Shown in pieces: positions 1 through 16,464 of a stretch of DNA of 64,000 bases. The position numbers and the translations under genes were made by a program. This DNA comes from an uncultured Clostridium sp. (GTDB taxonomy: Bacteria > Bacillota > Clostridia > TANB77 > CAG-508): the NCBI GenBank assembly GCA_946500615.1, contig CAMMWP010000002.1, positions 29,968-93,967 of the forward strand. The letters run 5' to 3'. The notes under the pieces are model-generated. The model was not told the DNA's origin and did not search any database. It worked only from the letters and a program-made list of their open reading frames with translations. How positions within the stretch are numbered: position 1 is the first letter of the stretch; each line of letters begins with the position of its first letter.

Positions 1-410
1 AAGACAAAAAATTAGATGGTAGAATTTTAAGAGATTTTAGCGAGGTAAAGAATAAGCAATTTAAAAATAGCTTGGACAAATTGTTACCACAAAAATTAAT
101 ACCAGTTATTATAAAAAGAAGTAAAATAGATTCTAATAAAAAAGTTAATGAGATAACTAGAAAAGAAAGAGAAGAATTAATAAAAGCAATAAAAAGGTTT
201 GAGATTACAATAAAACAATTTAGACCAATAGAAGAAGCCATTATTACAAGTGGAGGGATTAATGCAAAAGAAATAAATCCTAAAACGATGGAATCAAAAA
301 AGATAAAAGGGATGTATTTTGCAGGAGAAATTATTGATGTAGATAGTTATACAGGAGGATTTAATTTACAAATAGCATATTCGACAGGTTATGTAGCAGG
401 ATTAAATTAG
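1..410 (+). CDS. C-terminal part of HI0933-family FAD-dependent oxidoreductase (gene is truncated at the window start)
   Basis: Frame is open from nt 3. C-terminus reads GGINAKEINPKTMES...GMYFAGEIIDVDSYTGGFNLQIAYSTGYVAG, typical of the HI0933/aminoacetone-oxidase-like flavoprotein family. Confidence 0.5.
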   Translation, partial: DKKLDGRILRDFSEVKNKQFKNSLDKLLPQKLIPVIIKRSKIDSNKKVNEITRKEREELIKAIKRFEITIKQFRPIEEAIITSGGINAKEINPKTMESKKIKGMYFAGEIIDVDSYTGGFNLQIAYSTGYVAGLN

Positions 411-411
411 T

Positions 412-578
412 GTCCATTTGGGGACGTTTCCTTTTGAGACATTTTTATGTAAATCTAAGGCGTTAATAATAAAACAAGATAAGTATTTATTTTCTATATA
501 ACAATTCATTATTTATAAATAAAGAAAAGGCAGATTTACATAAAAATGTCTCAAAAGGAAACGTCCCCAAATGGACAT
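412..578. repeat. 167-bp foldback element with perfect 46-bp inverted arms (tgtccatttggggacgtttcc...) around a 75-bp AT-rich spacer. Probably also acts as a terminator.
   Basis: Arm 412-457 is the exact reverse complement of 533-578. A solo arm-like 20-mer (gtgtccaattggggacgtttc) recurs at 31026. Confidence 0.6.
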
Positions 579-636
579 AAGATTTTGTTATAAATCTTAT
601 AAATTTATAAATATATTATACGTGAAGGGAATAAGA

Positions 637-1278
637 ATGAATCATTACGTAACAATAAAAGAAAATTTAGAAACAGAAATTGTCATAAAAAAATCAAAAT
701 TTATTGCTAGTCTCATAAGAGTAGCAACAAAAGAAGAAGCTGAAGAAAAAATTAGAAAAATAAAGAAAAAATATTTTGATGCAAGGCATCATTGTATTTC
801 TTATAGAATTTTAGAAAGTAACAAAATAATAGAAAGGTTTAGTGATGATGGAGAGCCTTCTGGAACAGCTGGAGGACCTATGTTAAATATTTTACAAAAA
901 AACAATTTAGTCAATATATTAGTGGTTGTTACTAGATATTTTGGAGGAATACTATTGGGAACAGGAGGACTTGTTAGAGCTTATTCTGAAAGCGTTTTAA
1001 AAGCAATAGAGGAAAGTGAACAATTAGAAATTTTAGAAGGAAGAGAATGTGAAGTTGGAATAGAATATAGTAATTTTGAAAAATTTAAGTATTATTGTAA
1101 AAATAATGGAATATCTATAAAAGATTCTATTTATACAGAAGAAATTGTTTGTAAAATAGAGATGGAAGAACAAATAAAAGAAAAATTATTAAGAGATTAT
1201 GAGTTAAAAAATATAAATTTATTATATTTAAATGTTTTATCTAAAAAATATATAGAGAAAAGTATAGAAAAAACATAG
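637..1278 (+). CDS. yigZ: YigZ/IMPACT-family protein
   Basis: IKKSKFIAS...FDARHHCISYRI...DDGEPSGTAGGPML motifs. RBS gaagggaa lies upstream of the ATG at 637. The track start at 571 lies inside the inverted repeat. Confidence 0.7.
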   Translation: MNHYVTIKENLETEIVIKKSKFIASLIRVATKEEAEEKIRKIKKKYFDARHHCISYRILESNKIIERFSDDGEPSGTAGGPMLNILQKNNLVNILVVVTRYFGGILLGTGGLVRAYSESVLKAIEESEQLEILEGRECEVGIEYSNFEKFKYYCKNNGISIKDSIYTEEIVCKIEMEEQIKEKLLRDYELKNINLLYLNVLSKKYIEKSIEKT

Positions 1279-1385
1279 TTTTATAAAATAAATGGAAAAA
1301 ATTACCAATTATCATTGCAATTTATTTTCTATAATACTATAATTTGAACTGTAAAATATTTACAATTTATTTTTGGAGGGAAAAA

Positions 1386-2210
1386 ATGAAAGAAAAAATT
1401 ACAGTTTTGATTGCAGATGATAATCAAGAATTTAGTCAAACATTAGCATCATACATAGATGCACAAGAAGATATGGAGGTTATTGCAAAAGCCAAGGATG
1501 GAACAGAAGTAATAGATATAATAGCGAATACAGTCCCAGATATAATATTACTAGATGTTATAATGCCACATTTAGACGGGTTAGGAGTTTTAGAAAATAT
1601 CAATAAAATAAAGATAGCTAAGAAGCCAATTTGCATCATGTTATCAGCAGTTGGACAAGATAAGATAACACAAAGAGCAATAGAATTAGGTGCACAATAT
1701 TATGTAGTAAAACCATTTGATATTGAAGTATTAATCAAAAGAATTAGAGAATTTAAATTTTACAAACCAGTAGCACAAAATACGAATAATAATTTTTTGG
1801 CTAGAGAAGTAAAACCACAATATATTGAGATTTCTTCAGATAATGCTAAGCCAGAAGAAAACTTAGAAGCATTAGTAACAAATATTATACATGAAGTTGG
1901 CGTACCTGCACATATAAAAGGATATCAATATTTAAGAGAAGCGATTATGATGGTTGTAAATGATATTGATGTGATTAATCAAATTACCAAAAGCTTATAT
2001 CCACAAATTGCACGCAAATTTAATACAACACCAAGTCGCGTAGAACGTGCCATTCGTCATGCTATAGAAGTGGCATGGGGACGTGGTCAACAAGAAATTG
2101 TTGAGAATATATTTGGATATACCATTTCAGCTGCTAAAGGAAAGCCTACCAATAGTGAATTTATAGCGATGATAGCTGATAAATTACGCTTAGAATTAAA
2201 ATCAGCATAG
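1386..2210 (+). CDS. spo0A: Sporulation master response regulator Spo0A
   Basis: RBS ggaggg, then [16 protein letters not shown] receiver domain (D-D-K residues). C-terminal Spo0A-specific DNA-binding domain ([18 protein letters not shown]...[15 protein letters not shown]). The last ~50 codons lie in a sequence duplicated at 10772-10920. Confidence 0.92.
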
Positions 2211-2417
2211 GATATGGCTAGAAGTATTGCAAGAGTAAGAATATATAAAATTAGAAAATCTGCTTGCAAGGCTATAAACTATATGAAAATAGTCATAGAT
2301 TAAGTGAAAAATCAGCTCTCAAGGCAATAAATGAAAATTGAATAGGACAATAAACTTCCAAGATTTATTGGTTAATATTTAAAAATGTTAATCAGTAAAA
2401 ATTGGAGGTTTTTTTGT

Positions 2418-3404
2418 ATGGAGAAAATTGATTATGAGGTAGATGACTTTATGAATTATTGTGATTATAAAGGATTATCAAAAAAGAGCATGAGAAGTTA
2501 TGAGCAAACATTAAGGTTATTTATACGATATTTAAAAGATGAGTGTAATATCACAAACACAGGAGATATAAAAGAACAAACGATAAAAGAATATATAAGC
2601 AGTATAAAGGAAAGAGGAAAATACACAGTAGTTGCAAATGACAATTCAAAAAAATTTAATAATCCACAAAACAGACAAGATTTTGGAAAAAAAGTCAGTT
2701 TAGCAACAGTTAATAATTACACAAGAAATTTAAGAGTATATTTCAACTATATGTATGATAATAGGCTTATAAAAGTAAACCCAATGAAAAATATAAAAAC
2801 AATAAAAATACCAAGAAAAGTAGTAGGGTATATGGAAAATAAAGACTTTAATAATTTACTAAAATGCTTTGATTTATCTAAATTTCACGAATATAGGGAT
2901 TATGTAATAACACAATTAATATTTGATACTGGTATGAGATTAGGGGAAACACTTTCAATAAGAGATGAAACAGATATAAATTTCACAGATAGAACAATAT
3001 TTTTACCAGCAGAGAATACAAAAGGAAAAAAGGACAGATATGTATTTTTTTCAATAAAAATGGCAACTGAATTAAAAAGGTGGTTACAGTTTAGAGATAG
3101 ATACAAAGATAGTGAATATTGTTTTTGCACAATAAAAGGCACAAAATTAAAAGGTAGTAATTTTGAAAAGAATTTCACAAAATATGGAGAAAGAATTGGA
3201 AAAAGAGAAATACACCCACATCAATTAAGGAATAATTTTGCTAAAAGATTTTTAATGAGCGGTGGGGATATTTATACATTATCAAAAATATTAGGACATA
3301 GTTCAGTTCAAGTTACAGAACAAGCATACCTTGATTTAGATACCGAAGATTTAAGACAAATGTATCAAAAACATTCCCCACTTATGAATTTAAAAAGGAT
3401 ATAA
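2418..3404 (+). CDS. int: Tyrosine-type site-specific integrase
   Basis: RBS ggagg. C-terminal catalytic residues R..HxxR..Y (HPHQLRNNFAKRF...GHSSVQVTEQAYLD). Immediately adjacent to the att region. Confidence 0.85.
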   Translation: MEKIDYEVDDFMNYCDYKGLSKKSMRSYEQTLRLFIRYLKDECNITNTGDIKEQTIKEYISSIKERGKYTVVANDNSKKFNNPQNRQDFGKKVSLATVNNYTRNLRVYFNYMYDNRLIKVNPMKNIKTIKIPRKVVGYMENKDFNNLLKCFDLSKFHEYRDYVITQLIFDTGMRLGETLSIRDETDINFTDRTIFLPAENTKGKKDRYVFFSIKMATELKRWLQFRDRYKDSEYCFCTIKGTKLKGSNFEKNFTKYGERIGKREIHPHQLRNNFAKRFLMSGGDIYTLSKILGHSSVQVTEQAYLDLDTEDLRQMYQKHSPLMNLKRI

Positions 3405-3409
3405 AAAGA

Positions 3410-4123
3410 TTATTCTTTTGGGTATTCTTCTTTTGCCTTTTTGATTTTTTTATTTATCTCATCAAAATATACTTTGTCAACTATTGCATTTGTTGTTACA
3501 ATTTTGTTAGACAACAATGTCCTTTCCATAGTAACTTTTTCTTTTGTAATATATATTTTATCATTTTCTTTAACTTTTGAGGTAAAATATTCATGCAATA
3601 TCCTCAAAATTGGGAATTGCTTTTCATACCAACTTTCTTCCTCTTTATAATATTTTTCAAATGCTTTGCTTTCTGCTTTTTCTAACTCTTTTTGTGTATA
3701 ATTTTTTTTCTCTATAATAACTCGTGGATTTCCATCAAATGGACGATTTTTTTTTCTACTTTCTTGTTCTATTAAAAAATTTATGGTATTTAATAGGCTT
3801 TTTTTATTACTATATTTTAATTCATTTAATGCTTCTATTGCCTCATCAGTTAAACCTGTTAAATTATATATAGTAATATAATCTGGATTTGTACTAGCAA
3901 TATCTGTTTTACCCAATAAATAATTTTCTGAAACATTAAATTCTTTTGCTATCTTTTCTAAATCTTCTAGTGGGATAGGACGTTTTCCACTTTCATACAT
4001 GGCTACCGCTGACCTACTTATATTTAATATGTTATTGGCTAAGCCATCTTGTGTAATACCATTTTTTTCTCGTACCTTTTGAATTCTCTTACCTACTATA
4101 ACATAATTAATTTCTTGTGACAT
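3410..4123 (-). CDS. XRE-family HTH repressor (cI-like), divergent from the replication genes
   Basis: N-terminal HTH_3 (ITQDGLANNILNISRSAVAMYESGKRP). Divergent promoter region with a palindromic operator downstream. Confidence 0.7.
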   Translation of the reverse strand: MSQEINYVIVGKRIQKVREKNGITQDGLANNILNISRSAVAMYESGKRPIPLEDLEKIAKEFNVSENYLLGKTDIASTNPDYITIYNLTGLTDEAIEALNELKYSNKKSLLNTINFLIEQESRKKNRPFDGNPRVIIEKKNYTQKELEKAESKAFEKYYKEEESWYEKQFPILRILHEYFTSKVKENDKIYITKEKVTMERTLLSNKIVTTNAIVDKVYFDEINKKIKKAKEEYPKE

Positions 4124-4150
4124 TTTTTAAATTTTCCTCCTTTTGACACT

Positions 4151-4177
4151 TTTGTGACAAGTATTTTATTTGTCACG
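4151..4177. promoter_or_regulatory. Palindromic operator TTGTGACAA-N9-TTGTCACGA in the divergent promoter region of the island
   Basis: Perfect inverted half-sites tgtgaca/tgtcaca lie between the repressor and the rightward genes. Confidence 0.45.
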
Positions 4178-4385
4178 ATTTTATGATATTATAATCCAAA
4201 TAATCAAAAAAATCAATAAAAACATAATTAAGGGGGTGATTAATATTACAGCAGAAGAAATAAGAAAGGCTAAAAACGAATATTTTAGAACTTGGAGAAA
4301 AAACAACAGAGATAAAGTAAAAAAAGCCCAAGAAAGATACTGGGAGAAAGTAGCAAAAGAAAAACAAAAAAACTCACAAATGTAA
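4170..4385 (+). CDS. Small basic protein (possible Cro/excisionase-like; start uncertain)
   Basis: Lys/Arg-rich 50-70 aa ORF immediately rightward of the operator. Confidence 0.3.
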   Translation: MSRFYDIIIQIIKKINKNIIKGVINITAEEIRKAKNEYFRTWRKNNRDKVKKAQERYWEKVAKEKQKNSQM

Positions 4386-4471
4386 ATATCATTAGGCTAT
4401 GTCAGAAAATCAAACTGATATAAGCCTATTGTTAAGGATATAAAATAAAATAGAAAAGGAGAAATAAAAAA

Positions 4472-4810
4472 ATGAAATATATTGAGTTAAATAATGACAA
4501 AAGTCCAAAATATGGATTTCAAACAACATATAAAACTATGGAAGAATTAGAAAATGCAGGACTACTGCTAAACACAAAAGTTGTACTTGTCGATTTTGAC
4601 AATGACAATATAAATGAAGAAAAAATTATTGATTACATTAAAAAGGAATACCCAACATTAACAGTAAAAACAACAAAAGGTACACATTTTTATTATGCTA
4701 AACCTGATAATGTAAAAATCGGTTGTTATACTGATACGATTACAGTTGGAGGATTTCAAGTTGACTATAAAACAGGAACAAAAGCTTATGCTGTTGTAAA
4801 ACTTAATTGA
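4472..4810 (+). CDS. Primase-polymerase (prim-pol) N-terminal domain protein
   Basis: VLVDFDNDN acidic DxD motif and a YYAKP region typical of bifunctional primase/polymerase. Ends at a TGA that is in frame with the downstream helicase ORF. Confidence 0.5.
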   Translation: MKYIELNNDKSPKYGFQTTYKTMEELENAGLLLNTKVVLVDFDNDNINEEKIIDYIKKEYPTLTVKTTKGTHFYYAKPDNVKIGCYTDTITVGGFQVDYKTGTKAYAVVKLN

Positions 4811-4834
4811 ATAGAAAGGGAAACAAATCAACCG

Positions 4835-6310
4835 TTGTCATTTGATAACTTACCAGAATTACCGCCTATACTATATCCATTAAAAGTATCAAAAGAAAAT
4901 TTAAGTGGAATGGCAGATGGTGACGGAAGAAATGACAAAATGTTTAATCATTTATGTTGGGTGCAACGAATTTATCCTGACATCGACCTAGAAGATATGG
5001 CACAAATAATAAATGAAAAATTATTTGTAGAAAGACTAGAAACAAAAGAGTTAGAAAGTATTATAAAAAGTGTAAAAAGCTATTATGATCCAAACGAATA
5101 TACAGGAGATTTAACAGATATGATAGCATTTGCACAATGGATTATTCCTAAACTAGATATAAAAATTTATAATGGTCAATTATATTTCAAAGATGATAAA
5201 ACATATATTACGGATAATCGTTTATTATTACGAAAAGTAACACATTATTCAAAACTTAAAAGAGTTCAAGATAACGAACTTATACATCAATTACTAAAAT
5301 TTTGGGAGGAAATTGATATTACAACTATGAATTTACCAGTGTATATAAGAAATGGAAGTTTAATTGATGGTGAATATAATTCAAATGATATGCAAATATT
5401 CAGTCCATTTTATTTGGACGTGGAATATAATGAAAATGCTTATGATGAACACGTTGATAAATTTCTAAATGATATTACGTGTAATCGTATAGAATTACGT
5501 CAGACATTAGAAGAAATTTTAGGTCACATATTATTGACCAGTAAATTTCCAGCTCATGTATTCTTCTTATCAGGTGGTGGGAACAATGGCAAAAGCACAT
5601 TCCTAGAAATGATAAATAATTTTGTAGGAAAGGCAGGACAAAATTTAAGTTTAGACGCATTTAATGACGACACCAGTATTGCGGCACTAAATAGTAAATT
5701 ATGTAATTGTGCTGACGAAACTGACGACATAAAAATTGATAAATGCAAACGTTTTAAAAGTTTAGCGAGTGGAAACACAATAACAGTACGACCGATATAT
5801 CAACAACCAGTCAAAATTAGAAATGTTGCAACTCTCATACTATCTGCAAATAAAATGCCAATTTTTAAAGATAAGACAGAAGGTTTTTTCAGACGTCTTA
5901 TGATAATTCCGTTTGATTTTGTAATTACAGAAAAAAACGAAAATTTAGACGAATTATTAAGCACTGATAATGCAAAAAGCTACATATTGAATTTGGCATT
6001 AAACGGTGTGCAACGAATAAAAACAAATGGGTATAAAATGACTAAAAATCAATATGTTGACGCTAAAACTGAGGAATACATAACAGATAATGACCCAATA
6101 GCGGCATTCTTAAAAAATTATCCAAATATTGATGGGGAATTAACTAGTGCTGTATATTATCAGTATGAAACATTTTGCACCACATCAGAAATTGACAGTA
6201 ATTCAATGTCATTATCGCAATTTTCCAGCAAAATGCGTGAATACGGATACAAATCTACACCGACAAAAATTAATAAACAATCGGTCCGTGTTTACAAAAA
6301 AATGCGATAA
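4835..6310 (+). CDS. D5/P4-type primase C-terminal helicase (SF3 NTPase)
   Basis: Walker A FFLSGGGNNGKSTF and Walker B ILSANK motifs. Same reading frame as 4472..4810, separated by a single TGA. The called start is TTG. Confidence 0.65.
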   Translation: MSFDNLPELPPILYPLKVSKENLSGMADGDGRNDKMFNHLCWVQRIYPDIDLEDMAQIINEKLFVERLETKELESIIKSVKSYYDPNEYTGDLTDMIAFAQWIIPKLDIKIYNGQLYFKDDKTYITDNRLLLRKVTHYSKLKRVQDNELIHQLLKFWEEIDITTMNLPVYIRNGSLIDGEYNSNDMQIFSPFYLDVEYNENAYDEHVDKFLNDITCNRIELRQTLEEILGHILLTSKFPAHVFFLSGGGNNGKSTFLEMINNFVGKAGQNLSLDAFNDDTSIAALNSKLCNCADETDDIKIDKCKRFKSLASGNTITVRPIYQQPVKIRNVATLILSANKMPIFKDKTEGFFRRLMIIPFDFVITEKNENLDELLSTDNAKSYILNLALNGVQRIKTNGYKMTKNQYVDAKTEEYITDNDPIAAFLKNYPNIDGELTSAVYYQYETFCTTSEIDSNSMSLSQFSSKMREYGYKSTPTKINKQSVRVYKKMR

Positions 6311-6870
6311 ACTGATACACTAACTGATACACTATGCCATACGTGAAACTGCTGATATTACTGAACTATACACAATTACACTATTACACATATATTTTTT
6401 TAAAATATTTTAATTTTTATTTGTATATTATGAAATATGAAAAAAATTAATAATAAAAAATATATAAAATAATGGTGTAATTGTGTAATAGTGTAACGTA
6501 CTACGCTGACAAGTTGTTGGCGATAGAACAAGTGTATAGGAAAGTGTAATCACTTCAAATTTGTGTATAAAAATGATTTTGAATTAAGTTTTATGTAATA
6601 AAAAAATGGTAACCGAAAAGCACATATTATAGTAATGGCAATATGTTGGTGTGGTTACAAATTTAAAGTTGAATATTTAAACATGGTAACCTAGTCATAT
6701 TTTAAATTTAGGTTTATTTTTTGTGAATTTATAATAAAGTTGGATACCGAAAATGCGAAACATCAGTTATATCAATTTGTTTATGAGGTAACCAAAAGGA
6801 AACCAACTAAAAAAAGTAACCCAAGATAGTTACCGTAAATCATAAAAAAGATAGCAAAGAGCTATCGTAT
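6311..6870. promoter_or_regulatory. Putative replication origin of the island: inverted GTGTAAT iteron clusters flanking an AT-rich unwinding region, plus GGTAACC repeats
   Basis: tacacaattacactattacaca at about 6367 and ggtgtaattgtgtaatagtgtaac at about 6473 in inverted orientation. Between them is an 80-bp stretch that is essentially pure A/T. GGTAACC occurs three times in 6600-6830. Located just 3' of the helicase gene. Confidence 0.5.
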
Positions 6871-6877
6871 ATTATAA

Positions 6878-7117
6878 TTAATCGGCTATATCAATATTAT
6901 CAAATAATTTATCATCGAAAAAATCTTTTAATTTCATATTTAATGCTTCACAAATATATTCTATCATATCAAGTCTAATTATTTTTCTTTTGCCTGATAA
7001 AAATTTAGATAAAGTTGAGCGAGAAATACCAGCCAATGTAGAAAGTTTTGATACATTGAGATTATTTTCATTTATTAAATTAGTAATTCTCATTCTAACT
7101 GCTTCTGATAAATCCAC
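6878..7117 (-). CDS. Small XRE-family HTH regulator
   Basis: 79 aa with LSTLAGISRSTLSKFLSGKR helix-turn-helix. Confidence 0.6.
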   Translation of the reverse strand: MDLSEAVRMRITNLINENNLNVSKLSTLAGISRSTLSKFLSGKRKIIRLDMIEYICEALNMKLKDFFDDKLFDNIDIAD

Positions 7118-7181
7118 TCTAAAATCTCCTTTTATATAGTATTCCTATTAAAGAAAATTTTAACAAAAAACATATTTACAT

Positions 7182-7439
7182 TTGTTGACAAACGCCAACA
7201 TTTTTAGTATTATTTATACAGAAAGGTGCAGTAAAATGGAACAAATAAATAAAGAATTCGATGTGCCATATTACATATTTGAAGAAATAGTTAATTATGT
7301 TGAATTAACAGCACATGGAAAAAATAAAAGTATGAAATGGGAAAATATAAAAATGCTATTAGGATTAGCAAAAGTAAATGATAGATTAACAAGTGAACAA
7401 GTTGAATTTCTTATAAATAAATATAACAGGGAATTATAG
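7182..7439 (+). CDS. Hypothetical protein
   Basis: ORF with a likely start at MEQINKEF (7237). Located downstream of a ttgaca promoter-like box. Confidence 0.35.
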   Translation: MLTNANIFSIIYTERCSKMEQINKEFDVPYYIFEEIVNYVELTAHGKNKSMKWENIKMLLGLAKVNDRLTSEQVEFLINKYNREL

Positions 7440-7472
7440 TTCAATAATTTACAAAAGAAGGGGGATGAATAA

Positions 7473-7559
7473 ATGGACGGAAAAGGAAAATGGTGGAAAG
7501 TGATTTTAGGTATAGGACTTTTAGTTGGTGGATGTATCTTAGTTGCTATAACAGCATAA
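7473..7559 (+). CDS. 28-aa hydrophobic peptide MDGKGKWWKVILGIGLLVGGCILVAITA
   Basis: Strong RBS aagggggatgaataaATG. Single TM segment. Not in the ORF track because it is under 60 aa. Confidence 0.35.
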   Translation: MDGKGKWWKVILGIGLLVGGCILVAITA

Positions 7560-7598
7560 ACATTTTAAAAATTATAGAGAGGAAAGAGGAATATTTAT

Positions 7599-8060
7599 AT
7601 GAATATGAAATTAAAAAATCAAACAGGAATAAGTTTAATGAAAGTAATAATTATCGTAGCAGTAATAATTATAGGAATAGTAATCATTAGTGCGATTACA
7701 AGTAAACCGGGTTACGAGTTAAGTGTAGAAAAAAGCGAACCAGTTGCATATACAAATTTAAGATATTCTATTGCACAGGCAGCTGCAAGTAGTGGTGGTG
7801 CTAGTACATTAAAAAGCGAATATATTGATACACTTGGAAAATTAGTAAAAAGTGCAGATAGTAATAATCAATGGTTTTCAAGTAATAGTGGTGTGTTTTA
7901 TGGTGGAACAGCAGATACTTCTGATTATCAATATACTTGGATTTCAAACGGAACTTATTGTGCAACATTTTGTATAAAACAAGAGGGCAATACATATTAT
8001 TTATGTGATTTTAAATTTTCAACTGATACTGTAAAAGGTTATACACTTTTTGTTGAGTAA
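7599..8060 (+). CDS. Hypothetical secreted or membrane-anchored protein with a pilin-like N-terminus
   Basis: N-terminus MKLKNQTGISLMKVIIIVAVIIIGIVI: short basic leader, a Gly, then a roughly 20-residue hydrophobic stretch. No E at +5, so it is not a canonical prepilin. Confidence 0.4.
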   Translation: MNMKLKNQTGISLMKVIIIVAVIIIGIVIISAITSKPGYELSVEKSEPVAYTNLRYSIAQAAASSGGASTLKSEYIDTLGKLVKSADSNNQWFSSNSGVFYGGTADTSDYQYTWISNGTYCATFCIKQEGNTYYLCDFKFSTDTVKGYTLFVE

Positions 8061-8353
8061 TATGGATAATATAACGATAAAATAATAAAAAGTAGAAGAT
8101 ATTATCAATTTATCTTCTATTTTTGTAAATTTATATAGAAAAATAATCATAAAATAAAAATAAATAGCGGTAATTAGTATTATACAGGTGTTTTTAGGGA
8201 TTTTATATTTTAGTAAAGGTAATTTCATAGGTAATATATTAAAAGTGTTTAAAATTAAAATTACGACCACGTTTTTTATAAAAGTTCATAAAAAAGAAAA
8301 ATGTAAATATGTTTTATGAATTTTTTCTGTGTTTAGCAATATCAAACTGTTTT

Positions 8354-8542
8354 TTAATATATGGTCTGCCGACTAACAGGAATAATATTGCGAATATACC
8401 AGTTTTCTGCATTATCACTCATACGAGCCATAATTGTTTTATTCCAGTGTTTTATTTGTTCCTCTGACATTGGAACTTTTGAACAAGAGGATAATTGCAC
8501 AATATTAATAATATCTATATCATCTAAATCTGGTTTGTTCAT
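8354..8542 (-). CDS. Hypothetical protein (62 aa)
   Basis: Good RBS aaaggtggtg upstream on the minus strand. Confidence 0.35.
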   Translation of the reverse strand: MNKPDLDDIDIINIVQLSSCSKVPMSEEQIKHWNKTIMARMSDNAENWYIRNIIPVSRQTIY

Positions 8543-8700
8543 TTTTTATGCACCACCTTTTTCTATTTGATAAATTACATTATAAGATAAAATTAAAAAA
8601 AAATAAACAATGTTCTTACATTTTACAAATAACTACATTAAGAAAATAATAAAAATCTCTTAAAATAAAATGTGAATATAAAGTGAAAGGGGTGGATTTT

Positions 8701-8904
8701 ATGGAACAAGATTTTTATAGTGCAATATTAAAAATACTAGAAAAGGATATAAAAATTAATACAAATGAAAATTTAATAAACACATTATTTGAAAAAAGGT
8801 CAGAAAAATTTCATGTAGCAGTTACTAAAAATGACAAATATAAAGTTCAAAAAGAAAATTTAAAAAAAGCAAATGAAAAAATATATAGAATTACAAATGT
8901 ATAA
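8701..8904 (+). CDS. Hypothetical protein
   Basis: RBS aaaggggtgg, then ATG at 8701 (MEQDFYSAIL...). Confidence 0.35.
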   Translation: MEQDFYSAILKILEKDIKINTNENLINTLFEKRSEKFHVAVTKNDKYKVQKENLKKANEKIYRITNV

Positions 8905-9186
8905 ATATGGTGTTTATGACGGTATAAAATTAATACTTGACAGCATAAACAAATAATAAACTGTGATATTAAAAAGCAAGGGTGCAATATACCTTGTTTT
9001 AATTTTGTTTATTAAATTATGAATGTAATACAATGACAATTTAATTACATTTGATAAAACACACATAAAGCCAGTAATATCAACCGTTAAATACATTTTT
9101 GCTCGAAATATATACAGACAAATGTAATACAATTCATTTAGATTTTACATTAAATGTCTTATAATGAATAAAAAAGAGGTGGTTTT

Positions 9187-9747
9187 ATGAATACAGTTCA
9201 GCCAATAAGGGATAGGGAAAAATTAGAAGATTTAAAAGAGGAATTAAAGAAAAACGGAACAAGAGATTATATGTTATTTTATACAGGTATCAATTCGGGT
9301 ATGAGAATATCAGACATTGTAAAATTAACAAAAGAAGATGTAAGAAATAGTGATAATAGTATGAAACAACATATTACAGTAATTGAAAAGAAAACAGGAA
9401 AACAAAAACGATTTCCACTATGTAACGGTTTATTAGTAGAAATGGAAAAATACACAAAAAATATGAGAGCAGGGGAATATTTATTTAAAAGTAGAAAAGG
9501 AGAAAACAAACCAATAACAACAGTACAAGCATATAGGATAATAAGTGAAGCGGCAAAAAGAATAAGTTTAGAAGAAATAGGAACACATACTATGAGAAAA
9601 ACATTTGGGTATTGGCATTATCAACAATATAAAGATGTTGCAATATTACAAGAAATATTTAACCACTCATCACCATCAGTTACATTAAGATACATTGGAA
9701 TAAATCAAGATAACATTGATAAGTCATATATGAATTTTAGTTTATAA
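9187..9747 (+). CDS. Minimal tyrosine recombinase (186 aa, catalytic domain only)
   Basis: RBS aagaggtgg. Catalytic residues R (SGMRISD), K (KKTGKQKRF), HxxR (HTMRKTF), W/H (YWHY), Y (LRYIG). A degenerate 3' copy is at 11140-11285. Confidence 0.7.
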   Translation: MNTVQPIRDREKLEDLKEELKKNGTRDYMLFYTGINSGMRISDIVKLTKEDVRNSDNSMKQHITVIEKKTGKQKRFPLCNGLLVEMEKYTKNMRAGEYLFKSRKGENKPITTVQAYRIISEAAKRISLEEIGTHTMRKTFGYWHYQQYKDVAILQEIFNHSSPSVTLRYIGINQDNIDKSYMNFSL

Positions 9748-9863
9748 AAAATGTAAAATTTTACAATGTTCGCTTGATTTTTGCAAACAAATGTTGTATA
9801 GTATTAAACATAGGAAATGAGAATAAGCAGATGTGGTTTGCCTCCAATAAGGAGGTGAGGCAT

Positions 9864-9986
9864 ATGGTAGAAATACAAACATTAATTGCAACAATATACA
9901 TATTATATTATTCATTAATTGGCGTAACTATCATAGCTCTTACTTCGATAATAGCACTTGTAATACTACTTTGTAAGAGCAAATAA
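9864..9986 (+). CDS. 41-aa hydrophobic peptide with a C-terminal KSK; candidate type I toxin
   Basis: Promoter-like ttgcaa..tatagtat at 9782-9815. Strong SD aaggaggtg. Peptide is MVEIQTLIATIYILYYSLIGVTIIALTSIIALVILLCKSK. Followed by a rho-independent terminator. Confidence 0.45.
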   Translation: MVEIQTLIATIYILYYSLIGVTIIALTSIIALVILLCKSK

Positions 9987-9994
9987 ACCAAAAA

Positions 9995-10036
9995 AACAGA
10001 CACATCTGTAAACTCGCCAAAGTTTGATGTGTCTAA
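9995..10036 (+). terminator. Rho-independent terminator hairpin (agacacatc ... gatgtgtct)
   Basis: 9-bp stem plus a downstream A/T run. Confidence 0.5.
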
Positions 10037-10771
10037 AACATTATTCCGAGGTTGACCACGTTTGTGGTTTCTCCATTTCCTATAATTATTATACACAGAT
10101 TAAATGGATTTGTCAAATATAATTTTTTAATAAAATTGCATAAAAAGTGATATTTGCAACAGAAAAAAATAAAAATAAGTGTATAATAATAATTAAGTAT
10201 TAAAATGTATTAATTAAATAAGAGAGGAGGAATGACGAAGGAACTTAGATTCAAGTTAAATAAGACCTTTCAATAAATAAAAATTTATAGAAAGGAGGAA
10301 TTTTAAGGAAGTATCCTTTAATATGCTTAATAAGAATATTAATATTAATAATAATTTTTTTATTTGGTGAAGATACAATTCCAATCATAAAAGATTGGTT
10401 GCTTGGAGAATTGATTAGTTATTTCATAAAATCATTTTATACTAGTAAAATTAAAACTGAGCCAAAAAATGAAATAATTGTAAATATAAATCAAAATAAT
10501 TATTATACAGTAATAAAAAAACAATAATCCAAATTCCTAAACTTGTCTAAAACCTTTAAATTATTCCTATTTGTGTTAATAAAAGTAAGAATAAGTGATT
10601 AAGTTCATTTATTCTTTTTAGTTTCTATTGAGATTTCACGAATAATCTCTTAAAATCATACCAATAAACATTTTTGGATAAAACCAATAAATATTTATTG
10701 GAATGTGAAAATTTATTGCCCTCGTAACCTTTGACAAAATCTAAAAAGTTTGGTTTATAAAAATCCGCCAT

Positions 10772-10920
10772 GCCATAGAAGTAGCATGGGGAAGAGGACA
10801 AACGGATGTTGTAGAAAGTATATTTGGATACACCGTATCAGCAGCAAAAGGTAAGCCAACTAATAGTGAATTTATAGCAATGATAGCTGATAAATTAAGG
10901 CTAGAATTAAAATCAGCATA
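10772..10920 (+). pseudogene. Displaced second copy of the spo0A 3' end (last 50 codons, about 85% nt identity, mostly synonymous differences); att-associated
   Basis: Encodes [50 protein letters not shown]. spo0A positions 2058-2210 encode [50 protein letters not shown]. Confidence 0.8.
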
Positions 10921-11700
10921 ATGAATAATCTAGTATGTTTGAAGGTATTGATATAATAAGAATACGGAAATTTATAAAATATGATTTTATAGCTATAAAC
11001 TATATGAAAATAGTCATAAAATAAGTGAAAAATCAGAGGTTAAGGCTATAAATGAAATATTCATAGGACAATAAACTTCTAAAATTTATTGGTTAATATT
11101 AAAAAACGTTAATCAGTAAGTTTTGGAATTTTTTTTCATATGTGTAAAACATGTGGATATTGGCATTATCAACAATATAAAGATGTTGAAGAAATAGTTA
11201 ATCACTCATCACCATCAGTTACATTAAGATACATTGGAATAAATCAGGATAACATAGATAAATCATATATGAATTTTAGTTTATAAAAATGTAAAATTTT
11301 ACAATGTTCGCTTGATTTTTGCAAACAAATGTTATATAGTATTAAACATAGGAAATGAGAATAAGCGGAGTGTGTTGCCACCTTTTACTCTTTGATGTGT
11401 ACATATTTATTCCACAGCTTTTAGCTTGTGAGATTGACTGGCTGGTGGTGGTGCTATGGTAGAAACAGCTTATTAGTAATCATCAAACTACTTTTCCTTG
11501 GATTAGTAGGTGTAACTATCATAAATTTTGCCTTAGTATTCATCATCTTGTATTTACTACATAGGCAATAAAAATAACCATTCTGCTTTGACGGGTCGAA
11601 TGGTTATTTTATTCTTCTCGGCAACCACAAAGTGGTTTCTTCATTTCTTATAATTATTATACACAGATTAAATGGATTTGTCAAATAATAATTTTCCCAT
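10921..11700. mobile_element. Remnant of a second, related element E2: a left end homologous to 2211-2400, fused to the 3' fragment of the small recombinase and a disrupted toxin-peptide region
   Basis: 10975-11110 matches 2265-2400. 11140-11285 encodes ...WHYQQYKDVEEIVNHSSPSVTLRYIGINQDNIDKSYMNFSL*, matching the 3' end of 9187..9747. 11630-11690 matches 10060-10120. Confidence 0.6.
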
Positions 11701-11820
11701 CTGTACCACCTAATATTATTATGTACAAAAATAAATAATAGTATAAAAATAATGCAAATAGAGTTATCTGTCATGTTCGCTAGACAATAAAGTAAAAATA
11801 TAATGTACTAATTAACATAG

Positions 11821-11888
11821 GAAAGAGAAGAACAAGAAGCAGTTGAAAATATCTTTGGATAAACAACAAGCGTGGTACTGCAAAGCGT
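11821..11888 (+). pseudogene. Third, highly degenerate relic of the spo0A 3' end (likely the original chromosomal copy)
   Basis: acaagaagcagttgaaaatatctttggata aligns 25/30 with spo0A acaagaaattgttgagaatatatttggata. The frame is broken by TAA. Confidence 0.5.
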
Positions 11889-11983
11889 AAAAATAAAAAA
11901 ATAATCATATAGTATGAATTTGTATAAAATGAAAAATTATGGAAATACTGAAGATAAATACATAAGAAACTAAGGAGGTACAG

Positions 11984-12319
11984 ATGGAAGATATTGATTT
12001 AAAAAATATGATAATTTTAAAAGATTTACCATCAAATATAGTAAAAGAAGCGTATGTGGTATTCAAATCTAATAAAATGATAAAAAAATTTCAGAAAATT
12101 AATAAAAATAAAGAAAAAAAACAAATTGACAGAGAATGTGAAGAAGGCCAATATGCAATAAAAGAAGCAGAAATGTTAGTATCAGAATATATAGAAAAAG
12201 TAGAAAAATCTGAAAAAGAAGTCATATTAAATTCCAAAGTGAACAAAAAATTAAAAAGATATGCATATATAACAAGTATGATTATCGTTTTACAATTTAT
12301 ATTATTAATCATTAAATAG
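11984..12319 (+). CDS. Hypothetical protein with a C-terminal TM segment
   Basis: RBS aaggaggt. 111 aa, K/E-rich with a hydrophobic tail. Confidence 0.5.
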   Translation: MEDIDLKNMIILKDLPSNIVKEAYVVFKSNKMIKKFQKINKNKEKKQIDRECEEGQYAIKEAEMLVSEYIEKVEKSEKEVILNSKVNKKLKRYAYITSMIIVLQFILLIIK

Positions 12320-12381
12320 GCATAAAATACCTTTTCCAAACATATAGTTTAACAAGAAACGAAGGAAGAGGTGTTTTTTTA

Positions 12382-13275
12382 ATGGAAAGAGTAATGACAG
12401 TAGAAGAAAGAATCAAACGAGCAGAAGAAATATATGCAAGGCGAAAAAGAAATGAAGGACTGACAGTTATTAAAGATGAAGATATCAAAAAAGAAAAATC
12501 TGAAAAAAAAGATATAAAATTATTAAAAAAAATGTTAATTCAATTAATGGTTTGTGTATGTATATATTTAGTCATTTATATCATACAAAATAACCAATAC
12601 ATATTTTCAGAAGATTTTATTCACAAAGTAAATGAAATCATATCATATGATATTGACTTAAAAAAAATTTATGAAGACACAAAAAACTATATAATGAGTA
12701 TCTTCAATAAAGAAAAAGAAGAAGAAAACAAAGAAGAAGAGCAAAATGATCAAACAAATACGACGCAAAGCAATGAAGCAAATAATGGAATTGGAGGTGC
12801 AGTAGAAGAAACAAATAAGGAACCAGAGCAAGAAAAAGAAAATGAGGTTTTATCACAAGAAGAACAAGACATTTTAAATGTAAAAAATACAGCTAACTTT
12901 ATAAGACCGGTGGAGGGAACAATTAGTTCTGTATATGGATACAGGGAAACAGCAACAGGTACAGTGCCCAAAAATCATACAGGAACAGATATAGCAGCAA
13001 CAATGGGGACAAAAATAAAATCAGCAACAGATGGGCAGGTAGTTTTAGTTTCAGAAGAAGGAGATTATGGAAAACATATAAAAATACAAATTGGAGAAGT
13101 GAGTATTATTTATGCACACTGTAATAGCTTATATGTAAAAGAGGGGGAACAAGTAACACAAGGACAAGAAATAGCAGAAGTAGGATCTACAGGAAATTCG
13201 ACAGGTCCACATTTACATTTTGAAATTAGAATATCAGAAAGAACAGTTGACCCACAAAAGATACTAGAATTATAA
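12382..13275 (+). CDS. M23-family peptidase-domain membrane protein (SpoIVFA-like)
   Basis: N-terminal TM segment, C-terminal LytM/M23 motifs HTGTDIAA and GPHLHFEI. Lies immediately upstream of the SpoIVFB homolog. Confidence 0.6.
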   Translation: MERVMTVEERIKRAEEIYARRKRNEGLTVIKDEDIKKEKSEKKDIKLLKKMLIQLMVCVCIYLVIYIIQNNQYIFSEDFIHKVNEIISYDIDLKKIYEDTKNYIMSIFNKEKEEENKEEEQNDQTNTTQSNEANNGIGGAVEETNKEPEQEKENEVLSQEEQDILNVKNTANFIRPVEGTISSVYGYRETATGTVPKNHTGTDIAATMGTKIKSATDGQVVLVSEEGDYGKHIKIQIGEVSIIYAHCNSLYVKEGEQVTQGQEIAEVGSTGNSTGPHLHFEIRISERTVDPQKILEL

Positions 13276-13285
13276 AGGAGACAAC

Positions 13286-13996
13286 ATGAAATTTAGAATC
13301 GATTTGAAAATATTTATATTTATGATATTGTTTTTGATAACAAATCAGATAAAAATATATGCAATGATCATGCTATTTGCGATTATTCATGAATTAGGAC
13401 ATTTAGTCGCAGGAATATTATTAGGAATGCATGCCGAAAAAATAGAAATAAAACCATTTGGGGTAGCAATAGATTTGAATATAAAGAGAAAAGATTATAT
13501 GGTTAAACTACGAAGAGGAAATATTTTAGAAGTAAAAAAAATCATAGTGGCTTTAGCAGGTCCTTTAACAAATGCATTTATCATTTTGATACTATCAGCA
13601 CCACCAATTTTTCGATTAAATCCAGAAGAAACCATAGTAATGATTTTTTCTAACATTACTTTAATTTTATTTAACATATTACCAATTTATCCATTAGATG
13701 GTGGCAGAATCATTAAAAGCATGATGTATATTGTAAAAGGAAAACAACGTGCAGAAAAATACACATATTATATTTCTTACATAACACTAGTAGTGATAAC
13801 AATGATAAGTAGCATAGCAATTTTGTATTTGAAAAATATTGCTATATTTTTAGTAGTTATTGTTTTATGGGGATTACAAATGAAAGAGCAAAAAATATAT
13901 AGAAATAAAATGACATTATATGAAATAATAGAAAAAGAAATGAAAAAAGATGAATGTAAAAATATAAAAATTCCTATTGAAAATAAAATAAATTAA
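13286..13996 (+). CDS. spoIVFB: Site-2 protease, M50 family (SpoIVFB-like, pro-sigma-K processing)
   Basis: HELGHLVAG zinc motif in a TM helix and a second LDGGR motif. Multi-TM protein. Confidence 0.7.
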   Translation: MKFRIDLKIFIFMILFLITNQIKIYAMIMLFAIIHELGHLVAGILLGMHAEKIEIKPFGVAIDLNIKRKDYMVKLRRGNILEVKKIIVALAGPLTNAFIILILSAPPIFRLNPEETIVMIFSNITLILFNILPIYPLDGGRIIKSMMYIVKGKQRAEKYTYYISYITLVVITMISSIAILYLKNIAIFLVVIVLWGLQMKEQKIYRNKMTLYEIIEKEMKKDECKNIKIPIENKIN

Positions 13997-14028
13997 TAGT
14001 AAACTATACTAAAGAAAGTTGGAGGTAA

Positions 14029-15459
14029 ATGCAAATGATAAAAAAGGAGAAGGGTATTACAGTGATTTCATTATCAATAGCAGTCATTATTATATTGGCA
14101 ATAACAGGAATGATTTTATATTCAGCAAAAGATAGTATATATATACAAAGATTAACCAATATGCAAAATGATATAGCGAATTTAAGAGATAAAGTATCAC
14201 TATATTATTCAGAGTATGGAGAAATACCAGCAAAAACAGAATATTTTGACATTAGTAATTTACAAACATCAGGGGTTATTGGAGCCAATGATACAGGAAA
14301 ATTTCTAATCTTAGAAATAGAGAATCTAGAAGGATTAACATTAAATTATGGAAAGGATTATGAAAAATATAAAGCCAATGATTATACCGATTTAGCAGAC
14401 TTAACAGATATATATATTATAAATGATGTCAGTCACAATATTTTTTATGTGCAAGGAATTAATGTAAAAGAAAATGACCAAATGAAAACATATTATACAG
14501 ATTATACAGAAGGAGATAAACAGGAAGTTCAATTAATAGAGATAAAAGAAAATACAATAAAAGTAGGAGACTATGTAAATTATACATATGATGAAAAGAA
14601 TCAAGGCTATACTCTATTAGCATCACAAAGTGGATATATAAATGATCAAACGATTAATCAAAAAAGTGAAATGAAATGGAGAATTTTGAATATTCATACA
14701 GATGGAACAGTAGATTTAATAGGGGATATCAATTCATTTGATCAAACAGTGTATTTCATGGGAGGGCTTGGATATAACAATGGAGTATATTTATTAAATG
14801 ACATATGTAAAGAACTGTATAGCAATAGCAATTTAGAAATAGAAGCAAGAAGTATAAATTTAGAAGATATAGAAAATCAAATGAGTGAGGAAGGAATTAG
14901 AGCAAGAAATACTTATAATAATGGAACAATAACATATGGAAAGAGCAAAACATATACAGAAAATAATACAAATTATCCAAACTTATATGCAAGGGAAAAT
15001 GGAAGTGGAATTAATTCACAAGAACCCAAAAAAGATGGAATAGAAGTAAGTGATAATGGATATACAAGTCAGACACAAGAAATATCTACTAAAGCAGATA
15101 GCTTAACAGTAACACAAAACAGATATTATTTTAGTAATCCACCAGCAAGTTATTTTAAAGACTATGATGGTAATAGTAGTGCAATAAAAGACTTGTTATT
15201 TGAAACAGAAACAGAATATTGGTTAGCTTCTCGTTTTGCCAATTGTTATTCAGTCAATGTGGATTTTGGATTATGCAATATAGCTACTAATAAACTTAAT
15301 GAAGATATATTGTTGTATGATTCTACTAGTGATACTACAGGGGAAGGAAACAGACGTATACGTCCAGTGATTTCTCTAGGAAATGATATTGAAATTACAG
15401 CAGTAGAAAATGCTGATGGAAGCAATACAAAAAATATGCACCAAATTAGTAAAAAATAG
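14029..15459 (+). CDS. Hypothetical 476-aa membrane-anchored protein with a pilin-like N-terminus. Sits where minC is expected.
   Basis: N-terminus KKEKGITVISLSIAVIIILAITGMILYS. Mostly N/Y/T-rich extracellular-looking sequence. No MinC motifs. Confidence 0.45.
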   Translation: MQMIKKEKGITVISLSIAVIIILAITGMILYSAKDSIYIQRLTNMQNDIANLRDKVSLYYSEYGEIPAKTEYFDISNLQTSGVIGANDTGKFLILEIENLEGLTLNYGKDYEKYKANDYTDLADLTDIYIINDVSHNIFYVQGINVKENDQMKTYYTDYTEGDKQEVQLIEIKENTIKVGDYVNYTYDEKNQGYTLLASQSGYINDQTINQKSEMKWRILNIHTDGTVDLIGDINSFDQTVYFMGGLGYNNGVYLLNDICKELYSNSNLEIEARSINLEDIENQMSEEGIRARNTYNNGTITYGKSKTYTENNTNYPNLYARENGSGINSQEPKKDGIEVSDNGYTSQTQEISTKADSLTVTQNRYYFSNPPASYFKDYDGNSSAIKDLLFETETEYWLASRFANCYSVNVDFGLCNIATNKLNEDILLYDSTSDTTGEGNRRIRPVISLGNDIEITAVENADGSNTKNMHQISKK

Positions 15460-15669
15460 ACAGTAAAAATTCAAGAAGCGAAAATACTACTTGAATTTTT
15501 TGTTATATACAAAAAAGGGATTGTAAATTGCTACAAAATGTAATGAAATTGTAACAATTTAGCAATCTTTTTGTAATTTTAGCATGAAATATGATTGACA
15601 ATTAATGGATTTCGTTATATGATATACACATCAAAAATATGTGTTTTTAAAATCCTAAGGAGGAAAATT

Positions 15670-16464
15670 ATGGGAGAAGTAATTGTTATCACATCAGGAA
15701 AAGGTGGAGTAGGAAAAACAACAACAACAGCAAATTTAGGCTCAAGCTTAGCATTAGAAGGAAAAAAAGTAGTTTTAATTGATACAGACATAGGATTACG
15801 TAATTTAGACGTTGTTATGGGATTAGAAAATAGAATTGTATATGACATTGTTGATGTTGTAGAAGAAAAATGTAAATTAAGACAAGCATTGATAAAAGAT
15901 AAACGATTTAAAGAATTATACCTATTACCAGCAGCCCAAACAAGAGATAAAAGTGCAGTAAATGAAGAACAAATGAGAAACTTAGTAGGCACATTAAAAG
16001 AAGAATTTGATTATATTTTAATAGATTGTCCAGCAGGAATAGAACAAGGTTTCAAAAATGCCATAGCTGGGGCTGATAGAGCAATCGTTGTAACCACTGC
16101 TGAAATATCTGCTATTAGAGATGCAGATAGAATTATAGGTCTATTAGAATCATCTGACATTAAAAATCCAGAATTAGTCATTAATAGAATTAGACCAAAC
16201 ATGGTAAGAAAAGGAGAAATGATGGATGTAGATGATATTGTAGATTTATTGTCTATTGATCTAATTGGTGTCGTACCAGATGATGAATATATTATTACAC
16301 AAACAAATAAAGGAGAGCCAGTCATACAAAATAGAAGGGCACCATCAGGAAAAGCATACATAGAAATTGCAAAAAGAGTATTAGGAGAAAAAATAGAAGT
16401 GACGATACCGGGAAGAGAAAAGGGATTTTTTGCAAAGATAAAAAGATTATTTAAAAAATCATAA
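15670..16464 (+). CDS. minD: Septum site-determining ATPase MinD
   Basis: RBS aaggagg. Deviant Walker A GKGGVGKTTT. MinD-typical length and motifs. Confidence 0.9.
   Translation: MGEVIVITSGKGGVGKTTTTANLGSSLALEGKKVVLIDTDIGLRNLDVVMGLENRIVYDIVDVVEEKCKLRQALIKDKRFKELYLLPAAQTRDKSAVNEEQMRNLVGTLKEEFDYILIDCPAGIEQGFKNAIAGADRAIVVTTAEISAIRDADRIIGLLESSDIKNPELVINRIRPNMVRKGEMMDVDDIVDLLSIDLIGVVPDDEYIITQTNKGEPVIQNRRAPSGKAYIEIAKRVLGEKIEVTIPGREKGFFAKIKRLFKKS

Follow-up and report, generated by a model that had tools for sequence, protein, structure and literature searches.

The stretch of DNA analysed here, called the window, comprises 64,000 nucleotides from an uncultured Clostridium sp. (contig CAMMWP010000002.1, positions 29,968 to 93,967), and all coordinates given are those of the window. 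It contains spo0A, the gene for Spo0A, the regulator that decides whether a Firmicute sporulates. The 3' end of this gene occurs three times in the window, and the copies are separated by mobile DNA: an 8.7-kb island, E1, and the remnant of a second island, E2. Our analysis makes it very probable that the 3' end of spo0A is the bacterial attachment site (attB) of a lineage of tyrosine integrases, and that elements have integrated there serially, each bringing its own replacement 3' end for the gene. Elements that insert at the 3' end of a gene and bring a substitute for it within their own attachment site (attP) are well known; what is new is the target gene, spo0A. The original prediction, made from the sequence of the window, was aware of no description of spo0A as an integration target, and a search of the full-text literature found no paper that describes it as an attachment site.

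Three copies of the spo0A 3' end

The resident spo0A gene (1386-2210, plus strand) is an intact open reading frame (ORF) of 274 amino acids with full-length Pfam Response_reg and Spo0A_C domains. Its top matches among solved structures are the Spo0A entries 1LQ1 and 1FC3, with which the uninterrupted ORF aligns through residue 273, one residue short of either end. The last 51 codons of this expressed gene, together with its stop codon, form copy 1 (2055-2210, plus strand), the left attachment site (attL) of E1. Copy 2 (10766-10921, plus strand), again the last 51 codons in frame and ending in a stop codon, is silent; it is the right attachment site (attR) of E1 and the former attL of E2. A repeat search aligned 2052-2209 with 10763-10920 at 83% identity over 158 nt, and the 5' boundaries of these direct repeats are sharp. 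Aligned in codon register, copies 1 and 2 differ at 27 of 156 nt, with 18 synonymous and 8 non-synonymous changes, and their proteins differ at 5 of 51 residues (QEI..N..I versus TDV..S..V). The longest runs identical between them measure 19, 18 and 17 nt and start at 2191, 2169 and 2151, respectively. With a dN/dS ratio of 0.077 at a dS of 0.92, the two copies must be long-separated alleles, both of which evolved as working spo0A ends.

Copy 3 (approximately 11815-11895, plus strand) is a frame-broken relic that matches spo0A 2073-2154. It extends over about 27 codons, stops ~55 nt short of the end of the gene, and is disrupted by an in-frame TAA as well as an indel. Its homology is nevertheless evident from a local alignment score of 26, compared with 13.1 ± 1.7 (maximum 20) for 1000 dinucleotide-preserving shuffles, and its best part (11823-11866) matches the same spo0A region in dozens of species at 81-94% identity.

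Judged by the helix-turn-helix (HTH) pattern of the sequence, the duplicated segment begins in the middle of the second HTH helix, between ...SRVERAI and RHAIEVAW, and includes the last two helices. An AlphaFold model of Spo0A computed without an alignment was poor (predicted local distance difference test score, pLDDT, 47), and its helix boundaries lend weak support to the start of the segment only. Replacement takes in half of the recognition helix and both C-terminal helices, which is less than the whole DNA-binding unit.

These results refine the original prediction at several points. It had proposed three copies of the last 50 spo0A codons; there are three copies, of which the third spans some 27 codons rather than 50. 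Copy 2 is, as proposed, homologous, in frame and changed mostly at synonymous positions, with its coordinates a few bases off. The mobile DNA said to follow the copies, the full island E1 and then an E2 remnant with a shared left end and a 3' fragment of a small recombinase, was found in that arrangement. By contrast, the gradient from intact through diverged to decayed does not reflect decay in place: at a dS of 0.92 and a dN/dS of 0.08 copies 1 and 2 were already long-diverged functional alleles of different elements, and the copies are independent alleles rather than decay stages of one sequence. The statement that the C-terminal DNA-binding helices of Spo0A are encoded by mobile DNA applies of necessity only to the part 3' of the crossover and was otherwise too strong, as the segment starts within the second HTH helix.

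An integrase lineage found next to spo0A

E1 as a whole (2211-10765) lies between copies 1 and 2, with a repeat spacing of 8711 nt, and is apparently a complete island. Its integrase gene, int (2418-3404, plus strand), begins 207 nt past the spo0A stop codon and encodes a 328-aa tyrosine integrase (Pfam Phage_integrase, 3-170/172, with a SAM-like N-terminal domain; phrog_1 integrase). The ORF opens mechanically at 2385; the ATG at 2418, which is preceded by GGAGG, is the likely true start, and a protein of 328 aa is also called in independent assemblies.

Metagenomes were searched starting from the integrase, a choice that avoids the bias of starting from spo0A. Usable upstream sequence was available for 20 loci whose integrase is 49-79% identical, and at every one of the 20 spo0A or its 3' fragment lay directly upstream; at 7 of these a second 3' copy stood at the far end of a 4-8 kb element. 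Duplicated 3' ends were found in metagenome loci L091, L093, L095, L097, L100, L113 and L114. E1 adjoins an identical Spo0A, with the same junctions, in independent samples, and some related contigs end at the small recombinase. At a further locus (L094) ~135 nt upstream of the spo0A fragment match the right end of the element, which fits either an attP junction or a tandem array.

Deposited phage genomes yielded little. A megablast comparison of the whole region with them gave no match, the only match of the E1 integrase among them was a 28%-identical Bacillus phage recombinase, and comparison of the E1 helicase with IMG/VR found no relatives. A protein search of the same phage genomes with the Spo0A C-terminus returned 14 faecal contigs labelled 'UNVERIFIED Bacteriophage sp.'. 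Four such records, L087-L090 (MT835504, MT835737, MT835718 and MT835781), were considered as attP forms and rejected: the spo0A genes in them are complete and 41-54% identical to that of the window, no related integrase lies beside them, and the records are probably bacterial host DNA.

Empty and occupied sites in related species

Species-representative genomes searched for Spo0A yielded 80 loci of uncultured gut Clostridia, Clostridium sp. CAG:343 among them; the Spo0A proteins are 80-98% identical. The gene order yigZ-spo0A-orf111-spoIVFA-spoIVFB-...-minD is conserved across these 80 related species, while the gap between spo0A and orf111 varies from 81 to 9812 nt. With a gap of at most 310 nt taken as an empty site, seven species qualify (81-297 nt); six have no insert of any kind and one (L032) has only a short match to the E1 left end or E2. 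In addition, a complete copy of the 3' end stands distally at one locus (L017), 124 nt from orf111 and with a terminator-like hairpin in between, so that the ancestral adjacency of spo0A and orf111 is visible inside the window's own clade.

Occupied sites are numerous. In 6 of the 80 species a full-length integrase homologue (65-77% amino acid identity) stands ~200 nt after the spo0A stop codon with different cargo, and integrase fragments follow spo0A in five more. A remnant resembling the E1 left end or E2 lies within 400 nt of the stop codon in 33 species. Extra spo0A 3' copies were detected in six by DNA search (L006, L014, L017, L056, L063 and L079) and in five by protein search; L006 has three full copies in all, as in the window, and L014 and L017 have two. 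Taken together, integrases, E1- or E2-like remnants or extra 3' copies mark the site in 38 of the 80 species.

The original prediction had called for a comparison with relatives that lack the insertion, and the seven species with short gaps supply it. The outcome that was to speak against serial integration, a triplication with no element-free allele, was not what the relatives showed. Its proposal of serial integrations with replacement 3' ends is supported by these empty sites, by the recurrent integrase and duplicated ends, and by the attachment sites of a related phage, described next.

The region after spo0A also holds defence-related genes in several species. In L040 the gap contains PARIS AriA/AriB (10990-13213), in L046 an nSTAND3/PDC-S73 NTPase (5972-9292), which is also present in L051 and L057, and in L067 a type I restriction-modification methylase and specificity subunit (11094-14284).

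attB, attP and attL of a related phage

The most direct view of the recombination comes from phage contigs whose integrase is 51-52% identical to that of E1. In six of them (L082, L086, L104, L106, L109 and L110) a fragment encoding only residues 231-272 of Spo0A lies upstream of int, the layout expected of an attP; in L082 it sits between genes for tail-fibre-like and small membrane proteins and int. In two others (L103 and L105) the same phage stands behind a full-length spo0A, as attL. The Spo0A of the phage's host is closest to the Gemmiger/Pygmaiobacter type, and we refer to the phage as Gemmiger-type. An uninfected allele (P0001) is found on contigs without the integrase, in the order spoIVB-spo0A-ispDF, and L126 and L127 are empty sites for this phage.

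A triad of sites was thereby recovered: attB (L126), attP (L106) and attL (L103/L105). The three share an identical core of 111 nt inside spo0A, running from a Trp codon to GATAA(G/A)AT, and in the three-site alignment the left side of attL is that of attB and its right side that of attP. Over the 2.3 kb upstream, attB (L126) and the lysogen's attL are 99.9% identical. The triad belongs to the phage with the 51%-identical integrase, and the attP form of E1 itself was not found. The integrase lineage spans small, satellite-like islands of 6-9 kb and full-size temperate phages, in two distant groups of Clostridia.

Integration of the Gemmiger-type phage changes the protein. The last 9 residues of Spo0A are swapped for 19 unrelated ones, the native end ...FIAMISDKIRLDKKQRRA (253 aa) becoming ...FIAMISDKI(L/F)MGHKHRTNAINRNVYRFI (263 aa) in the lysogen; the native tail is ...DKIRLDKKQRRA, the tail that replaces it reads ...DKI(L/F)MGHKHRTNAINRNVYRFI, and the phage tail ends ...DKILMGHKHRTNAINRNVYRFI. 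The replacement begins within the last Spo0A helix, adjoining positions that we take to be those of activation-defective mutants in Bacillus. One may ask whether such substitute ends alter Spo0A function, so that carriage of an element tunes entry into sporulation, a lysogenic conversion acting on Spo0A. As a general proposition we regard this as rather unlikely. The Gemmiger-type phage may be its clearest candidate; in the window the effect on Spo0A would be at most the five conservative changes between copies 1 and 2.

A Gemmiger-like Spo0A variant of 296 aa (P0004) was also noted, in which Spo0A continues to ...NLRGKPT and then runs into a CI-repressor-like HTH ORF. It is known from three member sequences and one 2.5-kb contig, and may represent another element that uses the same core and truncates the last helix, or a chimeric assembly.

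Position of the crossover and its footprint on spo0A

Only one locus, L056, and the phage triad put bounds on the position of strand exchange. In L056 attL and attR are identical over ~50 nt (equivalent to 2121-2171 of the window), with mismatches only 3' of this block. Exchange at L056 must have taken place inside this block or 5' of it, and a minimum of ~13 terminal codons at this locus is element-derived. The L056 block and the phage core together point to exchange in a near-invariant stretch that encodes 13 residues. Copy 1 should be a chimera of host and E1 sequence, joined at the crossover; its element-derived part is at least the portion 3' of the crossover and at most all 156 nt.

Repeated replacement should also leave a trace in the evolution of the gene. 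The ratio of distances between clades to those within clades, computed over 81 spo0A genes, drops from 2.59 in the 5' part to 1.71 in the 153 nt preceding the last 153 nt, and to 1.19 in the last 153 nt; within-clade divergence climbs from about 9% to 14.5%. By this measure the terminal segment of spo0A behaves as horizontally exchanged DNA would, which is what repeated replacement by elements predicts.

Proposed order of events and alternative explanations

The data presented above have led us to propose the following model. The attP of each element would contain a spo0A-like 3' segment, 29-64 codons through the stop codon, immediately upstream of int. Int would exchange strands inside the segment shared with the chromosomal gene, leaving the gene intact, with host sequence before the crossover and element sequence after it, and moving the previous 3' end beyond the element, where it would stay as a silent attR copy. 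In the window, an early element would have displaced the native end, now the relic at 11815-11895 with a scrap of that element at 11766-11825. E2 (10922-about 11765) would have come next, and deletion would since have stripped it of its integrase and the bulk of its genes. E1 (2211-10765) would finally have entered the spo0A::E2 junction, itself functional, with copy 2 (10766-10921) left behind it. To judge from its complete integrase, its regulators and two flanking repeats that share identical stretches as long as 19 nt, E1 still seems capable of integration and excision; its replication is uncertain, as an in-frame TGA splits the primase/helicase gene.

Several observations weigh against this model or limit it. 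Every genome of the closest clade has at least 761 nt inserted at the site, and truly empty sites occur only in more distant species, apart from the distal copy of L017. Copies that share E1-like right or left ends form a mosaic with no clean switch point that would place the E1 crossover. We infer the order of integration only from position and degree of decay. Neither an excised E1 circle nor a restored E1-free allele of the window's species was found, and an exact look-up of four predicted pre-E1 Spo0A proteins found none in the protein collection, where the species is rare (3 contigs). Finally, the in-frame TGA may impair autonomous replication of E1.

Among other explanations, the one that survives best holds that E1, E2 and the relic arrived together, as a tandem array built in another host and moved via its outermost sites. 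Arrays of like architecture are indeed present in L006, L014 and L017, and E2-like remnants are so widespread in the genus that arrays are a common state. However, copy 3 lacks the conserved core and is now unusable as an outer recombination site, and E1 alone is bounded by good repeats. E2-type remnants also lie beside spo0A without E1 in many related species, which fits an old remnant joined by a later E1. Joint arrival is quite improbable; E2-type remnants are frequent and probably old in the genus, with E1 the later arrival.

It is very unlikely that E1 is a developmental intervening element of the skin, SPbeta or yin type, excised during sporulation to rebuild a working gene. In favour of this reading, spo0A belongs to the sporulation genes, among which sigK, spsM, spoVFB, gerE and yabG are known to carry elements of this type (PMC10747680, 2023), but spo0A is not interrupted and its ORF is full length with a conserved C-terminus. 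Both E1 recombinases are of the tyrosine type, whereas the elements in that study use the serine recombinases SpoIVCA, SprA and C. difficile CD1231 (PMC10747680). Moreover, Spo0A works at the start of sporulation in an undivided cell, and the logic of excision in the mother cell only does not apply.

We give equally little credence to a cassette system in which silent copies are kept as alternative Spo0A C-termini and swapped by the small recombinase. That copy 2 is in frame and encodes five different residues, and that the second recombinase (9187-9747) has no known role, might suggest such a system. Against this, the repeats are direct rather than inverted, and recombination between them would delete the intervening DNA, which is plain excision; copy 3 has lost its frame; the five residue changes, conservative ones, fall in a variable stretch; and ordinary integration gives the same layout, as the phage triad demonstrates. 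A segmental duplication or assembly artefact, with no site-specific recombination, can be dismissed: short-read assemblies often break or collapse at such repeats, and related contigs do end at the small recombinase, but 83% identity precludes collapsed or duplicated reads, the same junctions recur in independent samples, and neither the sharp homology boundary with an adjacent integrase nor the attP and attB forms would be expected of a duplication.

Gene content of E1

The left end of E1 (2211-2417, plus strand), non-coding and including the int promoter and ribosome-binding site region, is conserved among elements and remnants: 2213-2415 is 80% identical to 10934-11136 in E2, and the left end matches DNA directly after the spo0A stop codon in many related species at 74-97%. 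The right end (10622-10765, plus strand), which adjoins copy 2, has counterparts of 83-88% identity in L006 and L017, where they precede the extra spo0A copies, and in a segment of L009. A profile of GC content showed no compositional contrast between E1 and the chromosome.

Just upstream of int lies a 29-nt AT-rich near-palindrome, ATTTATTGGTTAATATTTAAAAATGTTAA, present in E1 at 2363-2391 and in E2 at 11084-11112. A 79%-identical copy occurs inside E1 at 6661-6689, near the second HTH gene; these motifs may be operator sites.

Converging with int is a gene for an HTH regulator of the XRE/CI-like type (3410-4123, minus strand; Pfam HTH_3 and HTH_19; PHROG transcriptional repressor/regulator families). 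A small basic ORF of 71 aa (4170-4385, plus strand), which matches only PHROG families of unknown function, precedes the replication gene or genes (4472-6310, plus strand). The latter comprise a 112-aa PrimPol part (4472-4810) and a 491-aa DUF5906/VapE-type helicase part (4835-6310), in the same frame and matching consecutive positions of phrog_864, divided by the in-frame TGA at 4811-4813. The identical split is present in other samples (L120 and L122). An alternative genetic code was ruled out, as host genes end in TGA; the codon is a nonsense mutation, a readthrough site or part of a natural two-protein arrangement.

Directly after the helicase gene, a position that makes it a candidate replication origin, the segment 6310-6496 contains two tandem copies of a 12-nt iteron, AACTGATACACT, and a 15-nt inverted repeat, TTACACTATTACACA, that flanks ~90 nt of AT-rich DNA. 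A second small HTH regulator follows (6878-7117, minus strand; Pfam HTH_26 and HTH_3). Functions could not be assigned to the accessory ORFs of region 7182-8904 (7182-7439, 7599-8060 and 8683-8904 on the plus strand, 8354-8542 on the minus strand), which had no Pfam, PHROG or PADLOC match. One of them, the 153-aa ORF at 7599-8060, itself without a family match in those three collections, has a start similar to that of a chromosomal 476-aa ORF (14029-15459): a short basic stretch precedes G-I-(S/T), and an extended hydrophobic segment comes after it, a pattern reminiscent of pilins. Scans with Pfam, PHROG and PADLOC detected no packaging, capsid-redirection or terS-like gene among the E1 ORFs of 6310-9187, although very divergent genes are possible.

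The second recombinase (9187-9747, plus strand) is a small tyrosine recombinase of 186 aa that consists of the catalytic domain only (Pfam Phage_integrase, 6-169/172; phrog_216, 8e-65). In L001 (~11019-11587) and L116 the first ~33 codons of int are fused to codons 15-186 of the small recombinase, and deletions from the start of int to the small-recombinase region recur in many species with varied right-hand endpoints.

Beyond the small recombinase lies a module that resembles type I toxin-antitoxin systems (9774-10116). It consists of a weak plus-strand promoter (9774-9802), a 40-aa hydrophobic ORF (9865-9987; MVEIQTLIATIYILYYSLIGVTIIALTSIIALVILLCKSK) and a minus-strand promoter (10116-10088) that is a perfect consensus, TTGACA-17-TATAAT, and converges on the hydrophobic ORF. 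This layout suggests that it acts as a type I toxin-antitoxin module; an Rfam scan of window positions 1-16000, which include it, gave no match. The module is the piece most common in remnants beside spo0A in other species, and its retention may explain why remnants persist.

The E2 remnant and the return to the chromosome

E2 is a deletion remnant of an island related to E1. Its left end (10922-11136, plus strand), 80% identical to 2213-2415, runs to the position at which int would start, and int is deleted. There follows a fragment of the small recombinase (11139-11369, plus strand), comprising the last 48 codons (remaining ORF 11140-11286) and the promoter region behind them, with 91-98% identity to 9591-9831. 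The toxin-antitoxin-like remnant (11370-11695; module 11312-11684) has a frameshifted hydrophobic ORF and an intact minus-strand consensus promoter (11684-11656); 11632-11695 is 92% identical to 10064-10127 of E1. A third copy of the promoter-type motif (11766-11825, plus strand), also found at 9760-9817 and 11298-11355, is fused to the relic and is probably a scrap of a third element.

Native chromosome resumes at 11919-12319 (plus strand) with a conserved leader and the 111-aa orf111, followed by spoIVFA- and spoIVFB-like genes. In the closest ~25 relatives 11919-11983 is 84-98% identical, mostly 91-98%, and by synteny the leader and orf111 are the neighbours of spo0A at the empty sites.

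Relation to known elements and significance

In Escherichia coli, phage 21 and e14 integrate by a tyrosine integrase at the 3' end of icd, with an attP that carries a substitute end. The spo0A elements resemble them in that the 3' end of a conserved gene is targeted, the gene is kept functional, the displaced native end is silent and alternative 3' ends circulate in the population. They differ in target gene, host phylum and integrase lineage, in that the spo0A site is also used by small satellite-like islands, stacked three deep, and in the unfaithful substitute end of the Gemmiger-type phage.

In Streptococcus thermophilus, the integrative and conjugative elements ICESt1 and ICESt3 and the cis-mobilizable elements (CIMEs) accrete at the 3' end of fda. 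Both systems show accretion in tandem at a single att site that lies at the 3' end of a housekeeping gene, and E2 is the counterpart of the CIMEs, decayed, integrase-less remnants flanked by att copies beside intact elements. Unlike ICESt1 and ICESt3, the spo0A elements of the window showed no conjugation or relaxase genes in Pfam and PHROG scans, and E1 has a primase/helicase replicon; unlike that of a CIME, the distal site of E2 (copy 3) is too decayed for mobilisation in cis.

E1 further recalls phage-inducible chromosomal islands (PICIs), including the Staphylococcus aureus pathogenicity islands (SaPIs), and P4-like satellites, being 8.7 kb long with int, an opposite-strand regulator, a primase/helicase and an adjacent iteron origin candidate. 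Site-specific integration is another likeness to PICIs and SaPIs, as is the PARIS, STAND NTPase and type I restriction-modification cargo at the site in relatives. The stop codon that splits the E1 replication gene, the failure of the scans to detect packaging genes and the lack of a known helper phage set it apart.

With skin-type elements the shared feature is prophage-like DNA inserted site-specifically in a sporulation gene of an endospore former. The known ones, skin in sigK, SPbeta in spsM, vfbin, gin and yin, split the ORF and must excise to restore it, in the examples compared in one study via serine recombinases with a directionality factor (PMC10747680), whereas here the spo0A ORF stays whole and a tyrosine integrase is the enzyme at work. 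Late sporulation genes are known as targets that mobile elements split; at spo0A, the most conserved stretch of the gene is the landing pad and the element supplies the end.

Gut Clostridia of two distant groups or more show this use of spo0A, and several consequences follow. In these bacteria the history of the last ~50 spo0A codons departs from the species tree, which matters wherever the gene serves as a marker or for inference of selection. Virome matches to 'phage-encoded spo0A' may represent fragments of attP and not auxiliary genes, and the four unverified phage records with probable bacterial DNA (L087-L090) are a caution for such reports. In uncultured gut Clostridia, satellites and defence cargo can be sought at a predictable spot, the position after spo0A. 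Finally, at least one phage changes the tail of Spo0A when it integrates, and whether lysogeny feeds back on the decision to sporulate thereby becomes a testable question.

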